A stretch of DNA of 64,000 nucleotides, taken from the sequence record OV876907; one strand, 5' to 3'. Both the position numbers and the translations under genes were made by a program. Of this stretch, positions 1,899 to 25,268 are shown one piece after another. The DNA comes from Escherichia phage UGJNEcP3. Each line of letters opens with the position of its first letter. Position 1 is the stretch's first letter. Below the pieces are notes generated by a model that was given only the letters and a program-made list of their open reading frames with translations, did no database searches and had not been told where the DNA came from.

Positions 1899-3709
1899 TG
1901 AAACAAGACTTAAAAGTAGGTTCCGCTGTTGATGACGGGTCCGGTGATTACCTGCGTGCAGGTGGTCTTAAAATTAATAACAACTTCAATGAGCTTTATT
2001 ACCAATTAGGCGACGGCAATAACCCACATGCCGCAGGCGCTTGGAAACAACATTCTACTGAAGACGGTGCTTTGTTGAATGCCGTAATGGGCCATAGCTA
2101 TACCCTTAATACCCAGGGTGGGCGTATTAACGTCCAGCTTCCTAAAGGCTCTCCTGAAGAATATAACTTTGTTATCCGTGTACGTGATGTGTATTCTTCA
2201 TGGCAAGCTAACCCAGTAACCTTAATCCCTGCCACAGGTGATACCATTAAGGGTTCAGCTACTCAAGTTGAAATTGCTCGCAACTTCTCTGACCTTGAAT
2301 TGGTTTATTGTGCGCCTGGTCGTTGGGAATATGTTGAAAATAAGCAAGTAAACCGTATTCCAAATAACGACCTTGCTACCGTAGCAACCAAGCAGTTTAT
2401 TGCTACTGAAGGTCAAACAGATTTTCTAGATGTTTTCCCTGGCCTTTCTTACAACGTAGCAAGTTTAAGCGTTTCGCAACGTGGTAACAATTTGTTCTAC
2501 GGTGTTGATGATATTTTTGATGCTGCTACCGCAGAGTTTGGTTCTCCGGGTGCTCAACCAGGTGAATTGGTTGCCTTGAATGGTAAGGACATCCGTTTAA
2601 AATATCCATGCGAAGCAGGTGATACCGTTATTATCAAATCGTATAATGACGGACTTGCTCAATGGCGCAGTTCTTATAACCGCCGTGATATAACAATCAA
2701 AAGTTCAGAATTGACTAAAGACGTTTCTGTTCCTGGTTCTTCTTTCGTAGGTGATTTGAGTACTTCACATGTTATATCAGCGGCTGATTTGAATATTTCC
2801 GTTAACAGTCCTATCAACCCAAATGCTTGCCAAGTCATGCTTAATAGCACATTACTTCATCAAGCTGGTACTGCTGGCCTTCCTTCGTTTTATTGTGAAG
2901 GTGCCGACGGACGTACTGCTACCGAGTGTTTTAATGCAGGCGGGCAATGGACTCAATCTAAATCAGACTATATTTTTAATTTGACCCCTGAAGATAAGAT
3001 TGAATCCATCGAATTTGGACGTGACTTTGAACATGGTGATATTCTTACGGTAATTTGGTACAATAACGATATCGGCACTACCATGGAAATTGATGAGATT
3101 TTGGATTATACCAATAACATCTATATTTCTAAAGGCCCTTCTATTGATATATCAGGCCAGGTTCGTATCACTGATGTAGATAATCCTTTTGCACCTAACG
3201 TTGAACCTGTCGCCCCATCTAATATTACAATAGATACGGCATCGACATTTTTTGATTTAATTTACCCTATAGGAACCATCTATGAGAACACGGTGAATCC
3301 TAATAACCCTAAAACTTATATGGGCTTTGGTTCATGGAAGCGTTTATCTGATGTGTTCTTGGTAGGTTGGTCTCCTGACGCTAGTTCTTTGTTTAATGCA
3401 AATAATAACGACCTGGATTCAGCGGGTGTTCCACAATCAACTGCAGGTGGGACTGGTGGTGCTCATGTGGCTAATTTGAAATATGAGAATATCCCAGAAC
3501 TTAATACAGATGATAAAGTCCTTATTGCTGATAATGATGGCCCTATTTTTGTAGGTGGATGTTTAGTTGACCCTGATTCGCAAGGACCGGCTTATACAAA
3601 ATATCGTGAAGATAAAGCCAGTATTAATAAGGCTCAAGGGACCACTCCCATCCCGGTTAATACTCTACCACCATACTTAACTGTTCATCGCTGGATGAGG
3701 ATTGCATAA
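1898..3709 (+). CDS. 10: baseplate wedge subunit and tail pin gp10
   Basis: ORF track; ATG overlaps gp9 stop (TAATG); size and position as T4 gene 10. Confidence 0.85.
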   Translation: MKQDLKVGSAVDDGSGDYLRAGGLKINNNFNELYYQLGDGNNPHAAGAWKQHSTEDGALLNAVMGHSYTLNTQGGRINVQLPKGSPEEYNFVIRVRDVYSSWQANPVTLIPATGDTIKGSATQVEIARNFSDLELVYCAPGRWEYVENKQVNRIPNNDLATVATKQFIATEGQTDFLDVFPGLSYNVASLSVSQRGNNLFYGVDDIFDAATAEFGSPGAQPGELVALNGKDIRLKYPCEAGDTVIIKSYNDGLAQWRSSYNRRDITIKSSELTKDVSVPGSSFVGDLSTSHVISAADLNISVNSPINPNACQVMLNSTLLHQAGTAGLPSFYCEGADGRTATECFNAGGQWTQSKSDYIFNLTPEDKIESIEFGRDFEHGDILTVIWYNNDIGTTMEIDEILDYTNNIYISKGPSIDISGQVRITDVDNPFAPNVEPVAPSNITIDTASTFFDLIYPIGTIYENTVNPNNPKTYMGFGSWKRLSDVFLVGWSPDASSLFNANNNDLDSAGVPQSTAGGTGGAHVANLKYENIPELNTDDKVLIADNDGPIFVGGCLVDPDSQGPAYTKYREDKASINKAQGTTPIPVNTLPPYLTVHRWMRIA

Positions 3710-5909: not shown

Positions 5910-7499
5910 ATGATTAACAAATTGGAACTTAGTGAGTTACCATTTGTTGACGGCGTACCTGATGCTCCTCAAAAGCGTATCCAATGGATACGCGAGGGTG
6001 ATTGTATGTCTGCAGCAAAAACAAAATACGGCAATGAAGGTAATTTGAACGCTGCTGCTTTAGGAGTTCAGAAAAACGTTGAAGCTCTTGATGCGAATGA
6101 TTTGAAAACCGCAGATAAAGTTAACGAACTGGTAGAAAACGTTAATAATATCAATGATGCCTTAGAAATGGCTACGGATATTTCCGCCATCCAACAAATT
6201 GAGAAAAACCGTGTTGATATCGTAGAGCTTAAGAGAGTAGAAGGCGAAACCACTGTCGGGCTAAACAATTTAACCATAAATTTAGACCACCTAAAAGAAG
6301 ACGTTGGTTACCATGACCCTTTACAAGACGGCCCGTATTTAACTGTACGTGAAAATATTGTTCTTCTTAAAACCGAAATAGGTCATTATGAAAACCAGGA
6401 TATAAATGGTAATCCGTTGCCTCCTGGTGAAACCAGTGAAGCCACCGGTATGAAACGACGCATCATTGATAATACCACTCAATTGGTCGACCATCGTCTT
6501 CGCATTGATACCCTTGAAAGGAATTATGAAGATTCTGACGTCGGGCAACTAGGTATTAAATTAAATGAAATTCGTGCTGAATTAGGTCCTCATTCCGATA
6601 CGGTAGGTAAACAACAGGCTTATACCCGAATTTCTGTATTAGAAACGGCTGCAATTAATTTCAATACATCTATCGACGAAATTAAGGCTGATATTGATTT
6701 CTCCGGTATGCCTATAAAGGACCGAGTAACTACTTTAGAAAGCAAAACTCTTACCCTAGAAAATTCGGTCACCGTTGATTTAAAACCTCGTGTAACATCA
6801 ATTGAAACCCAAATAGGTTCTGAATCAACTCCTACTTCTATTAATGGACGTTTAAGCGGTCTTCGTACTGATGTAAATGACCTTAAAACCATAGTGGGTG
6901 TTAGTTCAAGTGATGGCTTACGTTTCCAAGTTACTGATATCAACCGCCGTTTAGGTAGTGAAGTATCTCCGGCAGCTGGGACCATTAATAAGCGTTTAAA
7001 TGACGTTATTATCCAAGCAAACCAATCTACTTCATCTATCCAGGATATTCAAGTAGAAATTGGAAATAACCAATCCGGTATTAAGGGTACTTTACTTAAA
7101 CTCACCAATAAGGTTGACGGGACAAACCCTAACGGTACTACTGTAGAAGAACGTGGTCTTATTAACGCGGTTACTTCTTTAGAAACCCAGATGTTAGGTA
7201 AGTTGAATGATGCCCCTTCCGATGGTAAGCTTTATGCTCGTCGTAATGCTACGTGGACCGAAGTTCCTAACGTTTCTACTGAAATAGGGACCGTTAAAGC
7301 TGATTTAGTTGTTACCGATGGTAATGTAGCAGCTTTAACTTCTAGAGTTACTACAGCAGAAGATAAAATCACTGCATTAGAAACTGAACTTGCTAAACGT
7401 CCGCCGGTGGCTCCAGTTGCTGATGGACTTCCGTATGTTCTGGTTGATAATGCGTGGGTGCTATTGTCAGATTTTGTGACTTTAAACCCGGGACCATAA
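5910..7499 (+). CDS. wac: fibritin (whisker/neck fibre) Wac
   Basis: ORF track; long coiled-coil-like repetitive sequence; position between 12 and 13; followed by terminator hairpin. Confidence 0.85.
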   Translation: MINKLELSELPFVDGVPDAPQKRIQWIREGDCMSAAKTKYGNEGNLNAAALGVQKNVEALDANDLKTADKVNELVENVNNINDALEMATDISAIQQIEKNRVDIVELKRVEGETTVGLNNLTINLDHLKEDVGYHDPLQDGPYLTVRENIVLLKTEIGHYENQDINGNPLPPGETSEATGMKRRIIDNTTQLVDHRLRIDTLERNYEDSDVGQLGIKLNEIRAELGPHSDTVGKQQAYTRISVLETAAINFNTSIDEIKADIDFSGMPIKDRVTTLESKTLTLENSVTVDLKPRVTSIETQIGSESTPTSINGRLSGLRTDVNDLKTIVGVSSSDGLRFQVTDINRRLGSEVSPAAGTINKRLNDVIIQANQSTSSIQDIQVEIGNNQSGIKGTLLKLTNKVDGTNPNGTTVEERGLINAVTSLETQMLGKLNDAPSDGKLYARRNATWTEVPNVSTEIGTVKADLVVTDGNVAALTSRVTTAEDKITALETELAKRPPVAPVADGLPYVLVDNAWVLLSDFVTLNPGP

Positions 7500-7500
7500 T

Positions 7501-7522
7501 AAAAGGGCTTCGGCCCTTTTTT
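7501..7522 (+). terminator. intrinsic terminator after wac (UUCG tetraloop)
   Basis: AAAA-GGGC-TTCG-GCCC-TTTTTT. Confidence 0.7.
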
Positions 7523-7524
7523 GC

Positions 7525-7532
7525 TATAAATA
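7525..7532 (+). promoter_or_regulatory. T4-type late promoter TATAAATA (gene 13)
   Basis: Exact TATAAATA about 20 nt upstream of gp13 ATG, just after the wac terminator. Confidence 0.6.
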
Positions 7533-19692: not shown

Positions 19693-21252
19693 ATGAAAAA
19701 GAATGCATTAGTTCAAAAATGGTCCGCTCTGCTGGAAAACGAAGCCCTTCCTGAAATCGTGGGTGCTTCTAAACAAGCTATCATCGCTAAAATTTTCGAA
19801 AACCAGGAACAAGACATCCTGACTGCCCCGGAATACCGTGATGAAAAAATCTCTGAAGCATTTGGTTCTTTCCTGACCGAAGCTGAAATTGGTGGTGACC
19901 ACGGTTATGATGCTACCAATATCGCAGCTGGCCAGACTTCTGGTGCTGTAACTCAGATTGGGCCGGCAGTAATGGGTATGGTTCGTCGTGCTATTCCTCA
20001 TCTGATTGCTTTTGATATTTGTGGTGTTCAGCCTCTGAATAACCCTACCGGCCAGGTATTTGCCCTTCGTGCAGTTTATGGTAAAGACCCTATCGCTGCT
20101 GGCGCTAAAGAAGCTTTCCATCCGATGTATTCTCCGGACTCTATGTTCTCTGGTCAGGGTGCTGCTGAATCTTTCGAAGCACTGGCTGCAAGCAAAGTTC
20201 TGGAAGTTGGTAAAATTTATTCTCACTTCTTCGAAGCTACCGGTGCTGCACACTTCCAGGCTGTTGAAGTTGTAACCGTTGATGCTGCTGCTACCGATGC
20301 CGCTAAACTGGATGCTGCTGTTACCGCTTTGATTGAAGCAGGTAAGTTGGCTGAATTGGCTGAAGGTATGGCTACTTCTATCGCTGAACTCCAGGAAGGC
20401 TTTAACGGTTCTACCGATAACCCGTGGAACGAAATGGGCTTCCGCATCGACAAACAAGTTATCGAAGCTAAATCCCGTCAGCTGAAAGCAAGCTACTCTA
20501 TCGAACTGGCACAGGACCTTCGTGCAGTACACGGTATGGATGCAGATGCTGAACTGTCTGGTATCCTTGCTACTGAAATTATGCTCGAAATCAACCGTGA
20601 AGTTATCGATTGGATTAACTACTCTGCACAGGTTGGTAAATCTGGTATGACCAACACCGTTGGCGCTAAAGCTGGTGTGTTTGACTTCCAGGACCCGATT
20701 GATATCCGTGGTGCTCGTTGGGCCGGTGAGAGCTTTAAAGCCCTTCTGTTCCAGATTGATAAAGAAGCAGCCGAAATCGCTCGTCAGACCGGTCGTGGTG
20801 CTGGTAACTTCATCATCGCTTCCCGTAACGTAGTTAACGTACTGGCTGCAGTTGATACTTCTGTAAGTTATGCAGCTCAAGGTCTGGGTCAAGGTTTCAA
20901 CGTTGACACAACCAAAGCAGTATTTGCTGGTGTTCTTGGTGGTAAATATCGCGTTTACATCGACCAGTATGCACGTTCCGATTACTTCACCATCGGTTAT
21001 AAAGGCGCTAACGAAATGGACGCAGGTATCTACTACGCTCCGTACGTTGCACTGACCCCGCTGCGTGGTTCCGATCCGAAGAACTTCCAACCGGTAATGG
21101 GCTTCAAAACTCGTTACGGTATCGGTATCAACCCGTTCGCTGACCCGTCTGCACAGGCTCCTACCAAACGTATTCAGAGCGGTATGCCTGACATCGTTAA
21201 CAGCCTTGGTCTGAATGGTTACTTCCGTCGCGTATATGTTAAAGGTATCTAA
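19693..21252 (+). CDS. 23: major capsid protein gp23
   Basis: ORF track; strongly biased codon usage; size and position as T4 gene 23; terminator hairpin downstream. Confidence 0.95.
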   Translation: MKKNALVQKWSALLENEALPEIVGASKQAIIAKIFENQEQDILTAPEYRDEKISEAFGSFLTEAEIGGDHGYDATNIAAGQTSGAVTQIGPAVMGMVRRAIPHLIAFDICGVQPLNNPTGQVFALRAVYGKDPIAAGAKEAFHPMYSPDSMFSGQGAAESFEALAASKVLEVGKIYSHFFEATGAAHFQAVEVVTVDAAATDAAKLDAAVTALIEAGKLAELAEGMATSIAELQEGFNGSTDNPWNEMGFRIDKQVIEAKSRQLKASYSIELAQDLRAVHGMDADAELSGILATEIMLEINREVIDWINYSAQVGKSGMTNTVGAKAGVFDFQDPIDIRGARWAGESFKALLFQIDKEAAEIARQTGRGAGNFIIASRNVVNVLAAVDTSVSYAAQGLGQGFNVDTTKAVFAGVLGGKYRVYIDQYARSDYFTIGYKGANEMDAGIYYAPYVALTPLRGSDPKNFQPVMGFKTRYGIGINPFADPSAQAPTKRIQSGMPDIVNSLGLNGYFRRVYVKGI

Positions 21253-21268
21253 GATATAACCTTATTAT

Positions 21269-21286
21269 GGGAGACCGAAGTCTCCC
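21269..21286. terminator. terminator between gene 23 and the convergent minus-strand gene
   Basis: GGGAGAC-CGAA-GTCTCCC followed by T-rich ATTCTTGTTTCT. Confidence 0.6.
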
Positions 21287-21301
21287 ATTCTTGTTTCTGT
21301 A

Positions 21302-21568
21302 CTATGCAATCTTAACTCGGCGGTTGATGATATCACGGAAGTCGATACGATTTTCTTGGATTTTCAGCCAGTTACCAGATTTGTCTTTGGTATGGGCAGA
21401 GTATTCACCGTTCCACCAGAAGTCAGTTTCATAAGCCAGAGCTTCGTATTTCTTAACCAATGCATTAACTGCATTACCGTTAGGATTGGTACCGAATTTT
21501 TCTACCAGAGCTTTGATGTCTTTGTCAAGGTTAGAAAGCGTGGTACGGATAAAGTTTAATTTGTTCAT
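21302..21568 (-). CDS. hypothetical protein, minus-strand early-type gene between 23 and 24
   Basis: ATG 21568 preceded by GAGGAG and a GTTTACA-N17-TACTATAG promoter; track start 21583 lacks an RBS; not recognised. Confidence 0.6.
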   Translation of the reverse strand: MNKLNFIRTTLSNLDKDIKALVEKFGTNPNGNAVNALVKKYEALAYETDFWWNGEYSAHTKDKSGNWLKIQENRIDFRDIINRRVKIA

Positions 21569-21597
21569 TTTTAATCTCCTCATGTTTTGATAGGTCT

Positions 21598-21627
21598 ATA
21601 GTAACACGACGCTTTTTGTGTGTAAAC
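21598..21627 (-). promoter_or_regulatory. early-type promoter GTTTACA-N17-TACTATAG
   Basis: Upstream of minus-strand gene 21302-21568. Confidence 0.5.
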
Positions 21628-21633
21628 CACTTT

Positions 21634-21641
21634 TATAAATA
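21634..21641 (+). promoter_or_regulatory. T4-type late promoter TATAAATA (gene 24)
   Basis: Exact TATAAATA 29 nt upstream of gp24 ATG. Confidence 0.6.
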
Positions 21642-21670
21642 AAATTATATTCTCAATAAGGAAAATAGCA

Positions 21671-22951
21671 ATGGCTAAAATTAACGACCTTTTAAAAGAG
21701 TCGACCATTACTTCGAGTTCTTCGATTGGTCGTCCAAATTTAGTAGCTTTAACCAGAGCTACGACCAAACTGGTTTATACCGACCTTGTAGCTCAGCAGC
21801 GTACTAACCAACCTTTGGCTGCTCTATATGGTATCAAATATCTTACAGAAAAAGACGAATTATCTTTCCAGACGGGTGCTACTTATTCCGGCGCAGTATC
21901 CGCTAAAGACCGTGCCACTATCCCAGTTTTCACTGCAGGTGCTGTTTATGCTAAAGATGATTTGTTCCAATTTGAAAACGTAGTTTATAAAGCTTTGGTA
22001 GCAACCCCATTTGCCGGTGCTACTGGTGATGAATACGAACAACTTCAAGAAGCTATTGTTAAGTTGACTATCCGTATTATGTCCGAAGCCGCACTGACTG
22101 AGCGTTTTGAAGGCCCTCAGGATGTAGATATTTCTGAAGCTAAATTCATCGTTAATAAATGGAACGCTCCGGTTAAATCCCGTAAGTTGAAGAGTACTGT
22201 TACCGTAGAACTGGCTCAAGACCTCGAAGCAAATGGTTTCGATGCCCCTAATTTCTTAGAAGACCTCCTGGCTACTGAAATGGCTGATGAAATCAACAAA
22301 GATATTCTTCAGTCCCTGGTTACGGTTTCTAAGCGTTATAAAGTTGAAGGTTTGTGTGATGATGGCTTAATTGACCTGAGTTATGCTAACTCACCGGAAG
22401 CTTCTCGCAAGCTTTATGAATTGGTGTGTGAAATGGTTTCTCATATCCAGCGCGCAACCTCTTATACGGCAACTTATGTAGTAGCGAGTACTCGTGTAGC
22501 TGCTGTTCTGGCTGGTTCCGGATGGTTAAGACATACCCCACAGAACGACAAATATCTTTCTGCAAGTGCATACGGATTCCTGGAAAATGGTTTGCCTCTG
22601 TATTGTGATACTAACACGCCGATTGATTATGTTACTGTAGGGGTTAAAGAGGAATTTGGTGGGAAGGAAGCGGTAGGTTCTCTGTTCTATGCACCTTATA
22701 CCGAAGGCCTTGATTTGGCTGACCCTGAACATGTGGGTACGTTTAAAGTGGTCGTTGACCCGGAAAGTTTACAACCTTCCATTGCATTAATGGTTCGTTA
22801 TGCATTGGCTGCCAACCCGTATACAGTTACTGCCGATGATAAACAAGCCCGTATTATTGATGCAACTAATATGGATTTGATGGCGGGACGTTCTGATATG
22901 TCTGTATTGCTTGGTGTGAAACTTCCTAAAGTTTTGACTGAATTAAATTAA
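21671..22951 (+). CDS. 24: capsid vertex protein gp24
   Basis: ORF track; TATAAATA at 21634-21641; size and position as T4 gene 24. Confidence 0.9.
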   Translation: MAKINDLLKESTITSSSSIGRPNLVALTRATTKLVYTDLVAQQRTNQPLAALYGIKYLTEKDELSFQTGATYSGAVSAKDRATIPVFTAGAVYAKDDLFQFENVVYKALVATPFAGATGDEYEQLQEAIVKLTIRIMSEAALTERFEGPQDVDISEAKFIVNKWNAPVKSRKLKSTVTVELAQDLEANGFDAPNFLEDLLATEMADEINKDILQSLVTVSKRYKVEGLCDDGLIDLSYANSPEASRKLYELVCEMVSHIQRATSYTATYVVASTRVAAVLAGSGWLRHTPQNDKYLSASAYGFLENGLPLYCDTNTPIDYVTVGVKEEFGGKEAVGSLFYAPYTEGLDLADPEHVGTFKVVVDPESLQPSIALMVRYALAANPYTVTADDKQARIIDATNMDLMAGRSDMSVLLGVKLPKVLTELN

Positions 22952-22952
22952 C

Positions 22953-22979
22953 AAAAAGGGACCTCACGGTCCCTTTTTT
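22953..22979. terminator. bidirectional intrinsic terminator between gene 24 and rnlB
   Basis: AAAAA-GGGACC-TCAC-GGTCCC-TTTTTT; A-run and T-run on either side. Confidence 0.75.
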
Positions 22980-22982
22980 CAT

Positions 22983-23990
22983 TTATTTGGATACTAGTTC
23001 AATCCATACTGCTCGTAAGGTATCTTTTACGCACTCAACGAGCTGCTTTTTAACTTCAACAGGATTTTCCGCATCAGTTAATTCTAATTCTTCACGGGCA
23101 GCTTCTTCTAAGATATCTTGGACGGTCAAGCCCATTACCTTTCCAAAATCCTTCGGCGTTACTTCACCAATCTTACTGATAACATTGTTAATACGGTTAA
23201 CAGTCACATAATCAGTGAATTGCCACATCAAGTCCATATCATCTTGGGATAAAACCACTGCAACTTTAATAGGCTTATCAGACTTTTTCTTCTCGCTGAA
23301 TTTAGAGTTCTTACATTTAATTGCTACACGATTTCCATTAGGAAGCCAGATCGGAACATCAGGTTTAAGTACAAAGCCTTCAGCCGTAAATACTTTACCT
23401 TCTACCTTAGGAATAAAGTCTGTAGAGTTTGCAATAGTTAAGCCAGCGTTATCTACTGCAAAATTATAATCAGGAACAACAGAATCAAAATCATTAGGAA
23501 GTTTAATAAGGTCTTCAAAGCTACCAGTAGCCAAACATGGCGCAACCTTAAACTTATGGATAATGCAAAAAGCTTCCATCAACGTATCAGTCAGAACAGA
23601 TTCAGTGCCATCTTCCTTAGTAACTCGGATATCGAACACATAAAAGTCTTTATCACCGTAGTCCACATTCTTCTGGATACCTGTCCCAGCGAATTCGCCA
23701 TAAATCTGGTATGACCGGTAATTAATCGATTCAATTAGATGTTGAACGGATTTAATAGAATCAGCATAGTTCTTAAGTACAATTTCATAACCATAGAAAT
23801 CTTCAGCAGGGAGGATAGGGCCAGTGCGCTTGGCGCATGTGACGCAGTCACGTTCTATGATTAAACTAAAGTTGGTTCCATGAATCTTCTCACGTGCTAC
23901 CCATTCACCGCCAGTCAAACCATTAGTACGGAGTTTTTCGATAAACTTACTGTTGTAGTGGTTTTCGAGACTGCTATATTTCTTGAACAT
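22983..23990 (-). CDS. rnlB: RNA ligase 2 (RnlB)
   Basis: ORF track; [21 protein letters not shown]-terminus and nucleotidyltransferase motif EKIHG as in T4 Rnl2; convergent terminator shared with gene 24. Confidence 0.9.
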
Positions 23991-24104
23991 AAATCACCAT
24001 AATAAATATAATTAAATAGAAGAGCTAGTAGTCTTCTGTCACCAAGCCAAATGGTTTAACGGAAGGACCTAGACCCATTATAACACATCTAAATTTAAAG
24101 CATA

Positions 24105-24314
24105 TTACTTTGAACCAGAATGCTCTTTGCGCCGAACCTTGTTGTTCAATCTTTTACGATAAACAACCTTTTCTTTCGCTTTAAATTTGACCTTGGCTTG
24201 TTCTACATCAACCCATGCTTTGGCCATGTCCTTAGCGGTCCCGCCCATTTTTTTAGCAATTTCTATAAAATTCAACCCAGATTCGTGTAAAAAATGTACT
24301 TTAACCTTATCCAT
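24105..24314 (-). CDS. small helix-turn-helix protein, hypothetical
   Basis: ORF track; HTH-like segment GLNFIEIAKKMGGTAKDMAKAW then basic tail, resembling IS-family HTH proteins by eye. Confidence 0.5.
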   Translation of the reverse strand: MDKVKVHFLHESGLNFIEIAKKMGGTAKDMAKAWVDVEQAKVKFKAKEKVVYRKRLNNKVRRKEHSGSK

Positions 24315-24401
24315 AACAATTCTCTCGTTGAGTTGGTAAAACCCATCTTAACATAGAATTTTTAACTTGTAAACAGGAATTTTTGTACTTTAATGCAAAA
24401 T

Positions 24402-24415
24402 GGGCCTTGCGGCCC
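24402..24415 (-). terminator. hairpin terminator downstream of hoc
   Basis: Minus strand GGGCC-GCAA-GGCCC then ATTTTG; same 14-mer as the hairpin after gene 8. Confidence 0.45.
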
Positions 24416-24419
24416 GTAA

Positions 24420-25268
24420 TTAATAAACGTAATCGTATATAATACCAGCTTCTAAAGCGGTGCGATGAATAATTCGACCATTACGAGATTCTTGTACATC
24501 AACCTCTGGATAGTCGGTAATCATTTTTTGAAGTGTGTATCGGTGCAAATAATACGGGCTATCTGGGTCATCGGTTTTCCAGTCTTGCCCTGCAAGAGTC
24601 ATTTTCTGAATTTCATCCATAACCCACCAACCACACCAGATATAAGCTGAATTACGTACTGGCAATGGGTGTACATAAGGCAGTTCACCATCAGGGGTAG
24701 GTGCTACTTTAGCCGTGACTGTTACATTACCGGGTTTTGTGACAGTCGTGGGGTTATAATCAGTCGCTGAAACCACAACAGAAACTTCAATTACCTGGGA
24801 ACCTTCGGTGCTTGTATCGATTGCTAAAGTATCCGTGGTGCCAACTACAGGAGAACCGTCTTTCTTCCAAGAATAGGCAAAAGTAGCTCCACTCGGTGCG
24901 CCGACTACATCCGCTTTAAAAGAAGCTGGAGTGCCTTCCGGAACATTAATTGATTCTGGGGTTAATGTAACAGAAACACCAGACATTGTTTTATTCTGGA
25001 TAGTTAAAGTCGTCTCAGCTTCAGCAGTTTCCGGTTCGCCGTCCGCTGGTGTAGTTGTTGCAACAACTTTAATGGTCTTGCTGCCTGCTGGACCAACAGC
25101 AACATAATCCATTGCAGCAGTCACAGAAGATTGAGGAACACCATCAACGGTCCAGACAAATGATTCGGTACCTTCAGCTGCAGAACCGGAACCGGTCGCA
25201 GTGAAATTGGTTGTTGCTCCAATAACGGCCGTAGCCGCCAAAGGAGAAATATCTACGGTATAAGCCAT
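24420..25268 (-). CDS. hoc: outer capsid decoration protein Hoc
   Basis: ORF track; Thr/Val-rich Ig-like repeats plus C-terminal capsid-binding-like segment (YVHPLPVRNSAYIWCGWW); position next to inh; shorter than T4 Hoc as I recall it. Confidence 0.8.
   Translation of the reverse strand: MAYTVDISPLAATAVIGATTNFTATGSGSAAEGTESFVWTVDGVPQSSVTAAMDYVAVGPAGSKTIKVVATTTPADGEPETAEAETTLTIQNKTMSGVSVTLTPESINVPEGTPASFKADVVGAPSGATFAYSWKKDGSPVVGTTDTLAIDTSTEGSQVIEVSVVVSATDYNPTTVTKPGNVTVTAKVAPTPDGELPYVHPLPVRNSAYIWCGWWVMDEIQKMTLAGQDWKTDDPDSPYYLHRYTLQKMITDYPEVDVQESRNGRIIHRTALEAGIIYDYVY

Follow-up and report, generated by a model that had tools for sequence, protein, structure and literature searches.

What is a short gene with an early-type promoter doing, on the opposite strand, inside the late capsid gene block of a T-even phage? 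The question is posed by an 88-aa open reading frame (ORF) between genes 23 and 24 in the 64,000-nt stretch of Escherichia phage UGJNEcP3 DNA (record OV876907) that we call the window. A preliminary description had noticed the ORF, its ribosome-binding site and its promoter, and had considered the product unrecognised.

A small protein-coding gene between genes 23 and 24

Judged by its sequence, the window comes from a JS98/JS10-like T-even phage of the genus Dhakavirus. A 501-bp query around the ORF matched 99 phage records, with Escherichia phage UGJNEcP4 as the top match (99.2%), followed by KIT01, AnYang, MX01, JS10 and JS98, and the annotated records that match the window are classified as Straboviridae, Tevenvirinae, genus Dhakavirus. 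The local gene order is 21, 22 and 23 on the plus strand, the 88-aa ORF on the minus strand, 24 on the plus strand, and then rnlB (22983-23990), a 69-aa ORF and a hoc-like gene, all on the minus strand. As described before, the ORF is convergent with gene 23 (major capsid protein; 19693..21252, plus strand), divergent from gene 24 (capsid vertex protein; 21671..22951, plus strand) and opposite to the surrounding late head-gene block. Gene 24 is a single copy in the window; it is duplicated in tandem (24a, 24b) in JS10, VR7, IME341 and two metagenomic relatives, as a comparison with loci L001 (4471-7037), L004 (1-2395), L010, L013 and L015 showed. Another small unit of early type lies at 24105-24374 on the minus strand, between rnlB and the hoc-like gene, where GTTTACA-N17-TAAGAT (24374-24345, minus strand) is found 30 nt 5' of the 69-aa ORF (24105-24314, minus strand).

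The 88-aa ORF occupies 21302..21568 on the minus strand, stop codon included. It specifies a protein of 10.3 kDa with a pI of 9.5, orthologous to JS98ORF173c and EpJS10_0170 and belonging to PHROG 6003. The GAGGAG ribosome-binding site reported for it is indeed present, at 21576..21581 on the minus strand and 7 nt 5' of the ATG at 21568, and GGAG is kept at the same place in homologous loci. The longest mechanically defined ORF has five extra codons and begins at an ATG at 21583, within this Shine-Dalgarno sequence. Since every aligned homologue starts with M-N/T/K-K, the start at 21568 and the length of 88 aa are the correct ones. The 93-aa product from the ATG at 21583 is annotated in several GenBank records (Bp7, IME08, AnYang and IME540).

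Many ORFs of such length occur in the AT-rich DNA of the window, and 88 aa is by itself within chance. The homologues are 87-93 aa long and align end to end at identities down to 28%, with M1, K3, F6, N30-G31-N32, A45 and Q71 invariant across the alignment. When the window, JS10 and KAW3E185 were compared, 5-12 synonymous differences stood against 1-3 non-synonymous ones, with pN/pS of 0.05-0.07. An AlphaFold2 model computed with the homologue alignment reached a mean pLDDT of 93.8 and a pTM of 0.79. The conservation, the low pN/pS and the confident fold establish the 88-aa ORF as a genuine coding gene kept under purifying selection. One could still take it for the decayed remnant of a known gene, or for an ORF that arose by chance and codes for nothing, as the sole family that recognises it is an uncharacterised PHROG. 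Against this, besides the pN/pS and the model, all 19 homologues match PHROG 6003 from end to end or almost so; the window protein scores E = 1e-48, its residues 1-88 covering positions 1-88 of the 90-position profile. No resemblance was seen to SegD, to gp23 or gp24, or to a Pfam family. We find such an origin hardly credible, and the degenerate fragment that had been named as a possible refutation is effectively ruled out by the conservation data. The G+C content of the ORF (~39-40%) is close to that of nearby rnlB, and nothing in its base composition looks foreign.

Many T4-like phages already have the gene in their annotation, under the label hypothetical protein. UGJNEcP4 encodes the same protein as the window (100% identity) and JS10 one that is 98.9% identical, and family members by annotation are JS98ORF173c, EpJS10_0170 (JS10), VR7ORF190c and RB69ORF188c/189c; the VR7 copy is annotated as 'similar to JS98 ORF173c' and the PhAPEC2 copy as 'similar to RB69ORF188c'. 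Compared with this PHROG 6003 family, the window ORF has the identical slot, strand, promoter and hairpin, and no difference was seen. NCBI and UniRef names in four clusters are all 'hypothetical' or 'uncharacterized', and our literature search found no paper that names the family. The impression that the protein is not recognised thus holds in the sense that databases assign it no function and that PHROG 6003 is its only meaningful match.

The remote-homology and structure searches suggested in the preliminary description led to the same point. Scans of the window protein against Pfam, NCBIfam and PADLOC gave nothing meaningful, and with all 19 homologues as queries Pfam and PHROG yielded only noise apart from PHROG 6003. 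A GIY-YIG catalytic domain was sought in the 88-aa protein without a Pfam match at E up to 10, and comparison with known anti-defence and defence proteins, by sequence and by fold, brought up no characterised inhibitor or defence component. A profile search of PDB sequences returned de novo helical proteins at best (E >= 0.12), Foldseek against the PDB gave no match at E < 1, the BFVD search returned the family itself alone, and a search of IMG/VR with the non-T4 clade brought up no relatives. When the profile was run against 1.84 billion representative proteins, the true members that it recovered fell into only about six clusters. Two long repeat proteins (P0025 and P0026) and a chimeric 160-aa protein (P0023) from that search were rejected as artefacts. 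Overall, this is a small family confined to phages, with a fold for which no informative neighbour turned up.

The predicted fold itself is simple, with a helix at 3-25, a second at 31-48, a beta-hairpin at 52-61 and 67-71, and a C-terminal helix at 77-87. Most of the invariant residues belong to the cores of the helices or to the NGN turn. No Cys, His, Asp or Glu is conserved across the family, the window protein is cysteine-free, and the pI lies between 9.2 and 10.1 in 18 of the 19 members.

An early-type promoter next to a late one

The preliminary description had proposed a GTTTACA-N17 promoter for the ORF. It is present upstream of the ORF, carries the early-class motif and has a TG-extended -10: GTTTACA at 21627-21621, a 17-nt spacer and TACTAT at 21603-21598 form a predicted early-type sigma-70 promoter (21598..21627, minus strand), from which transcription is predicted to start near 21591. 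The window has 10 matches to the motif GTTTAC-N16-18-TANNAT where 0.91 would be expected, and none of 100 shuffles had as many. Nine of the ten matches are on the minus strand, each 14-34 nt 5' of a minus-strand ORF start. For the 88-aa ORF this distance is 29 nt, and the geometry is that of eight other minus-strand units of the window. All the features by which a T4-type early unit can be told from its sequence (-35, spacer, extended -10, A/T-rich upstream region, distance to the start) were found.

The late promoter of gene 24, TATAAATA, lies at 21634..21641 on the plus strand, 29 nt 5' of the gene 24 ATG at 21671. It had been placed a few nucleotides from the early -35, and we measured 6 nt. 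On the ORF's own strand no late promoter was found. The complement of the gene 24 late promoter is A/T-rich and adjoins the early -35 on its 5' side, and it may therefore double as an UP element.

We aligned the region from the ORF start to gene 24 in seven lineages, among them Dhakavirus, Gaprivervirus, Mosigvirus, two metagenomic lineages and the region upstream of segD in T4. Three elements are kept throughout: the late promoter, (G)TTTACA and TG-n-TA(c/t)TAT, with a spacer of fixed length and free sequence. Conserved -35 and -10 elements around a variable spacer look like the footprint of a functional promoter.

The T4 sequence in this alignment deserves attention. Upstream of segD, T4 carries ATTTACA-N17-TATTAT (NC_000866 107233-107322; 3734-3823 of locus L009), aligned to window positions 21569-21670. 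The T4 segD unit shares with the window ORF the intergenic slot, the strand opposite to genes 23 and 24, and homologues of both the TTTACA-N17-TAnnAT element beside the late promoter of gene 24 and the terminator hairpin, but it differs in its cargo, an unrelated 223-aa GIY-YIG homing endonuclease in place of an 88-aa helical protein. A 2010 review likewise puts segD on the other strand from genes 23 and 24 (PMC2988022). The preliminary description's term 'same-strand' for segD is therefore mistaken if direction with the late genes was meant, and correct if direction with the 88-aa ORF was meant. The same review states that a segD promoter could not be identified and that segD transcripts are perhaps vanishingly rare (PMC2988022). 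The supplement of a time-resolved T4 omics study lists segD as early RNA and middle protein, with the protein detected (PMC9697503). By homology, this class assignment is the only experimental evidence that the promoter of the slot fires early. RB69, Mosigvirus, Dhakavirus and T4-like phages do not appear in the main text of the PhageExpressionAtlas paper. The alignment also suggests that T4 segD, long described without a promoter, follows a conserved early promoter.

Because of the promoter sequence and the analogy with T4 segD, the ORF is probably transcribed early. The earlier characterisation of an early-type gene within a late capsid gene block is thus borne out, in that promoter sequence and minus-strand placement agree.

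At the other end of the ORF, the convergent stop codons of gene 23 (21252) and the ORF (21302) flank a 9-bp G+C-rich hairpin (21267..21288). This hairpin had been called a shared terminator, at 21269-21286. For gene 23 it is a canonical intrinsic terminator, with a T-rich tail on the plus strand (gene 23 sense). That tail is found on the plus strand only; the ORF strand carries a stable C(UUCG)G followed by AAUAAGG, without a U-tract, and an intrinsic terminator with U-tracts on both strands is not what the sequence presents. Since the T-rich tail is restricted to the gene 23 sense, termination of the early transcript at this hairpin is not assured. The hairpin loop is inverted between close relatives: the ORF strand reads UUCG in the window, whereas in JS10, MX01 and Mosigvirus it reads CGAA and the gene 23 strand has the UUCG. 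An Rfam scan of 20500-24500 never reached a gathering score.

These two ends of the unit raise the possibility that its transcription matters more than its protein. Read-through of the hairpin, plausible without a U-tract on the ORF strand, would cover the 3' end of gene 23 with antisense ('anti-late') RNA; or else polymerase at the early promoter, whose -35 is so close to the late promoter, would occlude the latter and tune capsid expression. That the promoter module is kept even in T4, with a different cargo, fits either version. On the other hand, the amino-acid sequence is under strong purifying selection, the fold is confidently predicted and conserved, and the early promoter is absent in T2 and most Tequatroviruses. 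For these reasons an effect of this kind could be a side effect rather than the main function, and as the main function we hold both the antisense and the occlusion version to be unlikely.

Distribution of the gene and its link with a SegD-family endonuclease

By tblastn the gene is present in 233 phage records, with identities of 89-100% in Dhakavirus, ~64% in Gaprivervirus and ~33% in Mosigvirus. In the loci inspected from these genera it always separates gene 23 from gene 24 and runs opposite to them, an arrangement found also in two metagenomic T4-like lineages (57% and 28% identity). A 43%-identical copy in ABPH49, a phage labelled Vequintavirinae, and a 38%-identical copy in a 62-kb contig (L012) lie amid co-directional small ORFs, with no head genes in the loci fetched (2.5 kb / 4 kb each side).

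By contrast, the gene was not found in Tequatrovirus, T4 and T2 included. In T2 and most Tequatroviruses the 23/24 slot is empty, only ~80 nt long, and leaves no space between the terminator of gene 23 and the late promoter of gene 24 (the T2 spacer, from MH751506, is at 463-545 of locus L017). No early promoter was found in these empty slots, and the early promoter travels with the cargo rather than belonging to the backbone. T4 and ~50 records have segD in the slot instead. In the RB69 reference record (NC_004928 109291-109531) the gene is split into ORF189c and ORF188c by two frameshifts, which are either real decay in a laboratory strain or old sequencing errors. The split corresponds to two single-base indels relative to PhAPEC2 (7292-7532 of locus L018). 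Truncated copies occur in some other phages. Given the absence from Tequatrovirus, the frameshifts in RB69 and the truncations elsewhere, the gene is accessory and dispensable.

The phrase 'lineage-specific accessory content' from the preliminary description is therefore half right. Its accessory part agrees with the presence and absence of the gene in related phages. The gene is not lineage-specific, as it keeps the same slot and orientation in three genera as well as in metagenomic lineages, and it also occurs in a non-Tevenvirinae phage within a block of small genes. In the same way, T4 does carry segD at this position, but segD is not a simple alternative, because some Dhakavirus and Mosigvirus genomes carry both. 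The 23/24 spacer seems to be a site of plasticity that can be empty or can hold this gene, segD or both.

Genomes that carry both genes show a close physical link. In Mosigvirus KAW3E185, a 219-aa homologue of T4 SegD (58% identity) begins 3 nt past the ORF stop, and in the alleles that carry it the endonuclease ATG at this distance has no Shine-Dalgarno sequence of its own. Dhakavirus IME341 has the ORF and the endonuclease in the same arrangement. The cassette lies at 2400-3500 of locus L003 in KAW3E185 and at 2597-3538 of locus L015 in IME341. The ORF-plus-endonuclease cassette is covered to at least 80% in 38 records, and most carriers of the ORF, the window included, have no endonuclease.

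A sliding comparison suggests how this distribution arose. KAW3E185 and Mosigvirus PhAPEC2 are 99-100% identical throughout genes 23 and 24, but only 41-69% identical from the gene 24 promoter region through the ORF. The promoter region and ORF of KAW3E185 are instead ~94-98% identical to those of the Dhakavirus window (96-98% when scored in blocks of 100 columns), with 15 differences in the 267-nt ORF. From these sequences, the cassette appears to have moved a Dhakavirus-type allele into a Mosigvirus backbone. The last six codons of the ORF (21302..21319, minus strand) correspond to the insertion junction of the SegD-family gene in other phages. Within these 18 nt, both endonuclease-carrying alleles, on two different backbones, have eight identical substitutions, none of which is present in the endonuclease-free alleles of the window, JS10 and MX01. 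Such substitutions are what would be expected at a homing junction, either as an alteration of the target site or as the edge of mobile DNA. In the simplest reading, a SegD-family endonuclease would have inserted behind the gene in a Dhakavirus and then homed into a Mosigvirus, co-converting promoter and ORF. The window allele is free of the endonuclease and presumably cleavable.

Is the ORF, then, no more than a partner or landing pad of the endonuclease, a part of a mobile element without an independent role for the phage? It could supply the promoter and translational coupling for the endonuclease, as the 3-nt distance and the missing Shine-Dalgarno sequence would suggest, or it could hold the cleavage site, in line with the eight shared substitutions; the joint transfer of the two genes between genera agrees with both. 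Nevertheless, most copies stand without an endonuclease, which contradicts a reading as an endonuclease element only, and in these carriers the ORF is under purifying selection. T4 carries segD without the ORF, the homologues in non-T4 contexts have no nuclease neighbour, and the status of a homing site is compatible with a function of the ORF's own. We think it improbable that the ORF is merely a part of such an element, be it as promoter, coupling device or cleavage site.

Proposed function and comparison with known systems

The gene belongs to the small early accessory genes of T-even phages. Our favoured reading, which we consider fairly probable, is a dispensable accessory gene in a one-gene early unit, whose product is a stoichiometric binder of a negatively charged partner. 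We are highly confident that the gene is real, early and accessory, and have little confidence in the class of the target. Since homology gives no function, we infer the mechanism and target from the anatomy of the gene: an early-type promoter, small size, basic charge, the lack of conserved Cys, His, Asp or Glu, invariants confined to the helix core and the NGN turn, dispensability, and a patchy, horizontally exchanged distribution. A basic pI is weak evidence for the target class, because it is common among small phage proteins.

In this mechanism, host sigma-70 RNA polymerase would transcribe the ORF in the first minutes of infection from GTTTACA-N17-TGnTACTAT. The mRNA would have a ~23-nt 5' leader with a strong Shine-Dalgarno sequence, and would end in, or read through, the stable UUCG hairpin. 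The product would be a 10-kDa basic, cysteine-free and non-enzymatic protein of two long helices, a beta-hairpin and a C-terminal helix, binding stoichiometrically to a negatively charged host protein, host defence component or nucleic acid. Small early proteins of T-even phages that take over the host or counter its defences act in this manner, binding and redirecting their targets. The gene would spread also by hitch-hiking with the SegD-family endonuclease right after its stop codon.

Instead, the protein could have a role connected with the head, since homologues as distant as 28% identity strictly keep their place beside genes 23 and 24. The protein would then act on gp23 or gp24, as a helper of assembly or folding or as a regulator of vertex formation, and such a role would explain its lasting 23/24 position in Dhakavirus, Gaprivervirus, Mosigvirus and the two metagenomic lineages in spite of identities as low as 28-33%. 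Against such a role, the gene lies on the opposite strand behind an early-type promoter, and no late promoter was found on its own strand. In addition, T4 and T2 make the same kind of head without the gene, the RB69 copy is frameshifted, and the homologues of ABPH49 and the L012 contig had no head genes in the loci fetched. The T4 internal proteins IPI and IPII are similar to the 88-aa protein in size and in location among head genes, but they belong to PHROGs 4363 and 7857 rather than 6003. The N-terminus of the 88-aa protein is MNKLNFIRTT, and the MKTYQEFIAE-type capsid-targeting sequence is absent; neither a capsid-targeting N-terminus with a gp21 cleavage site nor homology to IPI, IPII or IPIII was found. 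Taken together, we see little likelihood of a head-morphogenesis accessory. Mosigvirus members weakly match PHROG 8765, 'internal virion protein' (E = 0.0015-0.05); this lead was rejected, as hhalign gave probabilities of 0.1% to IPI and 2% to IPII.

A more specific form of the host-directed reading is tentative and, in our view, rather doubtful: an early counter-defence or host-takeover factor of new fold that binds a host target and is a passenger of a SegD-family endonuclease, with the endonuclease site overlapping its last codons. Possibly, such a factor would pre-empt a defence triggered later by capsid proteins. If this form were true, homing endonucleases would be vehicles that swap accessory, possibly host-range, genes across genera.

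Returning to the favoured reading of a small early binder, the family is of interest since small early T-even genes are a proven source of host-takeover and anti-defence functions. At least three genera of coliphages that serve in phage therapy have kept it, and it has a confidently predicted fold without a structural neighbour. Current understanding is unchanged unless a target or a phenotype is found. The most useful by-products are the putative conserved early promoter common to this gene and T4 segD and the apparent hitch-hiking with an endonuclease across genera, a clear-cut case from nature in which the accessory allele next to a homing endonuclease, promoter included, has been taken along.

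Among the closest known systems are AsiA, Arn and Dmd, small early host-takeover or counter-defence proteins of T-even phages. They are ~60-110 aa long, have an early-type promoter, are dispensable and patchy between genera, and lack enzymatic motifs. A recent example of a small early protein of this host-takeover type is Emp of Mosigvirus AV110 (bioRxiv 10.64898/2026.09.14.751387). In the early-protein screen described there for Mosigvirus, candidates were picked by T4 homology, and the PHROG 6003 family was thus outside it (bioRxiv 10.64898/2026.09.14.751387). The 88-aa protein is like AsiA, Arn, Dmd and Emp in size, early-type promoter, dispensability, patchiness and non-enzymatic character, but has no sequence or fold similarity to them. 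It also differs from them in its location: genes of the AsiA, Arn, Dmd and Emp type are usually found in early-gene clusters, whereas the 88-aa ORF sits inside the late head-gene block.
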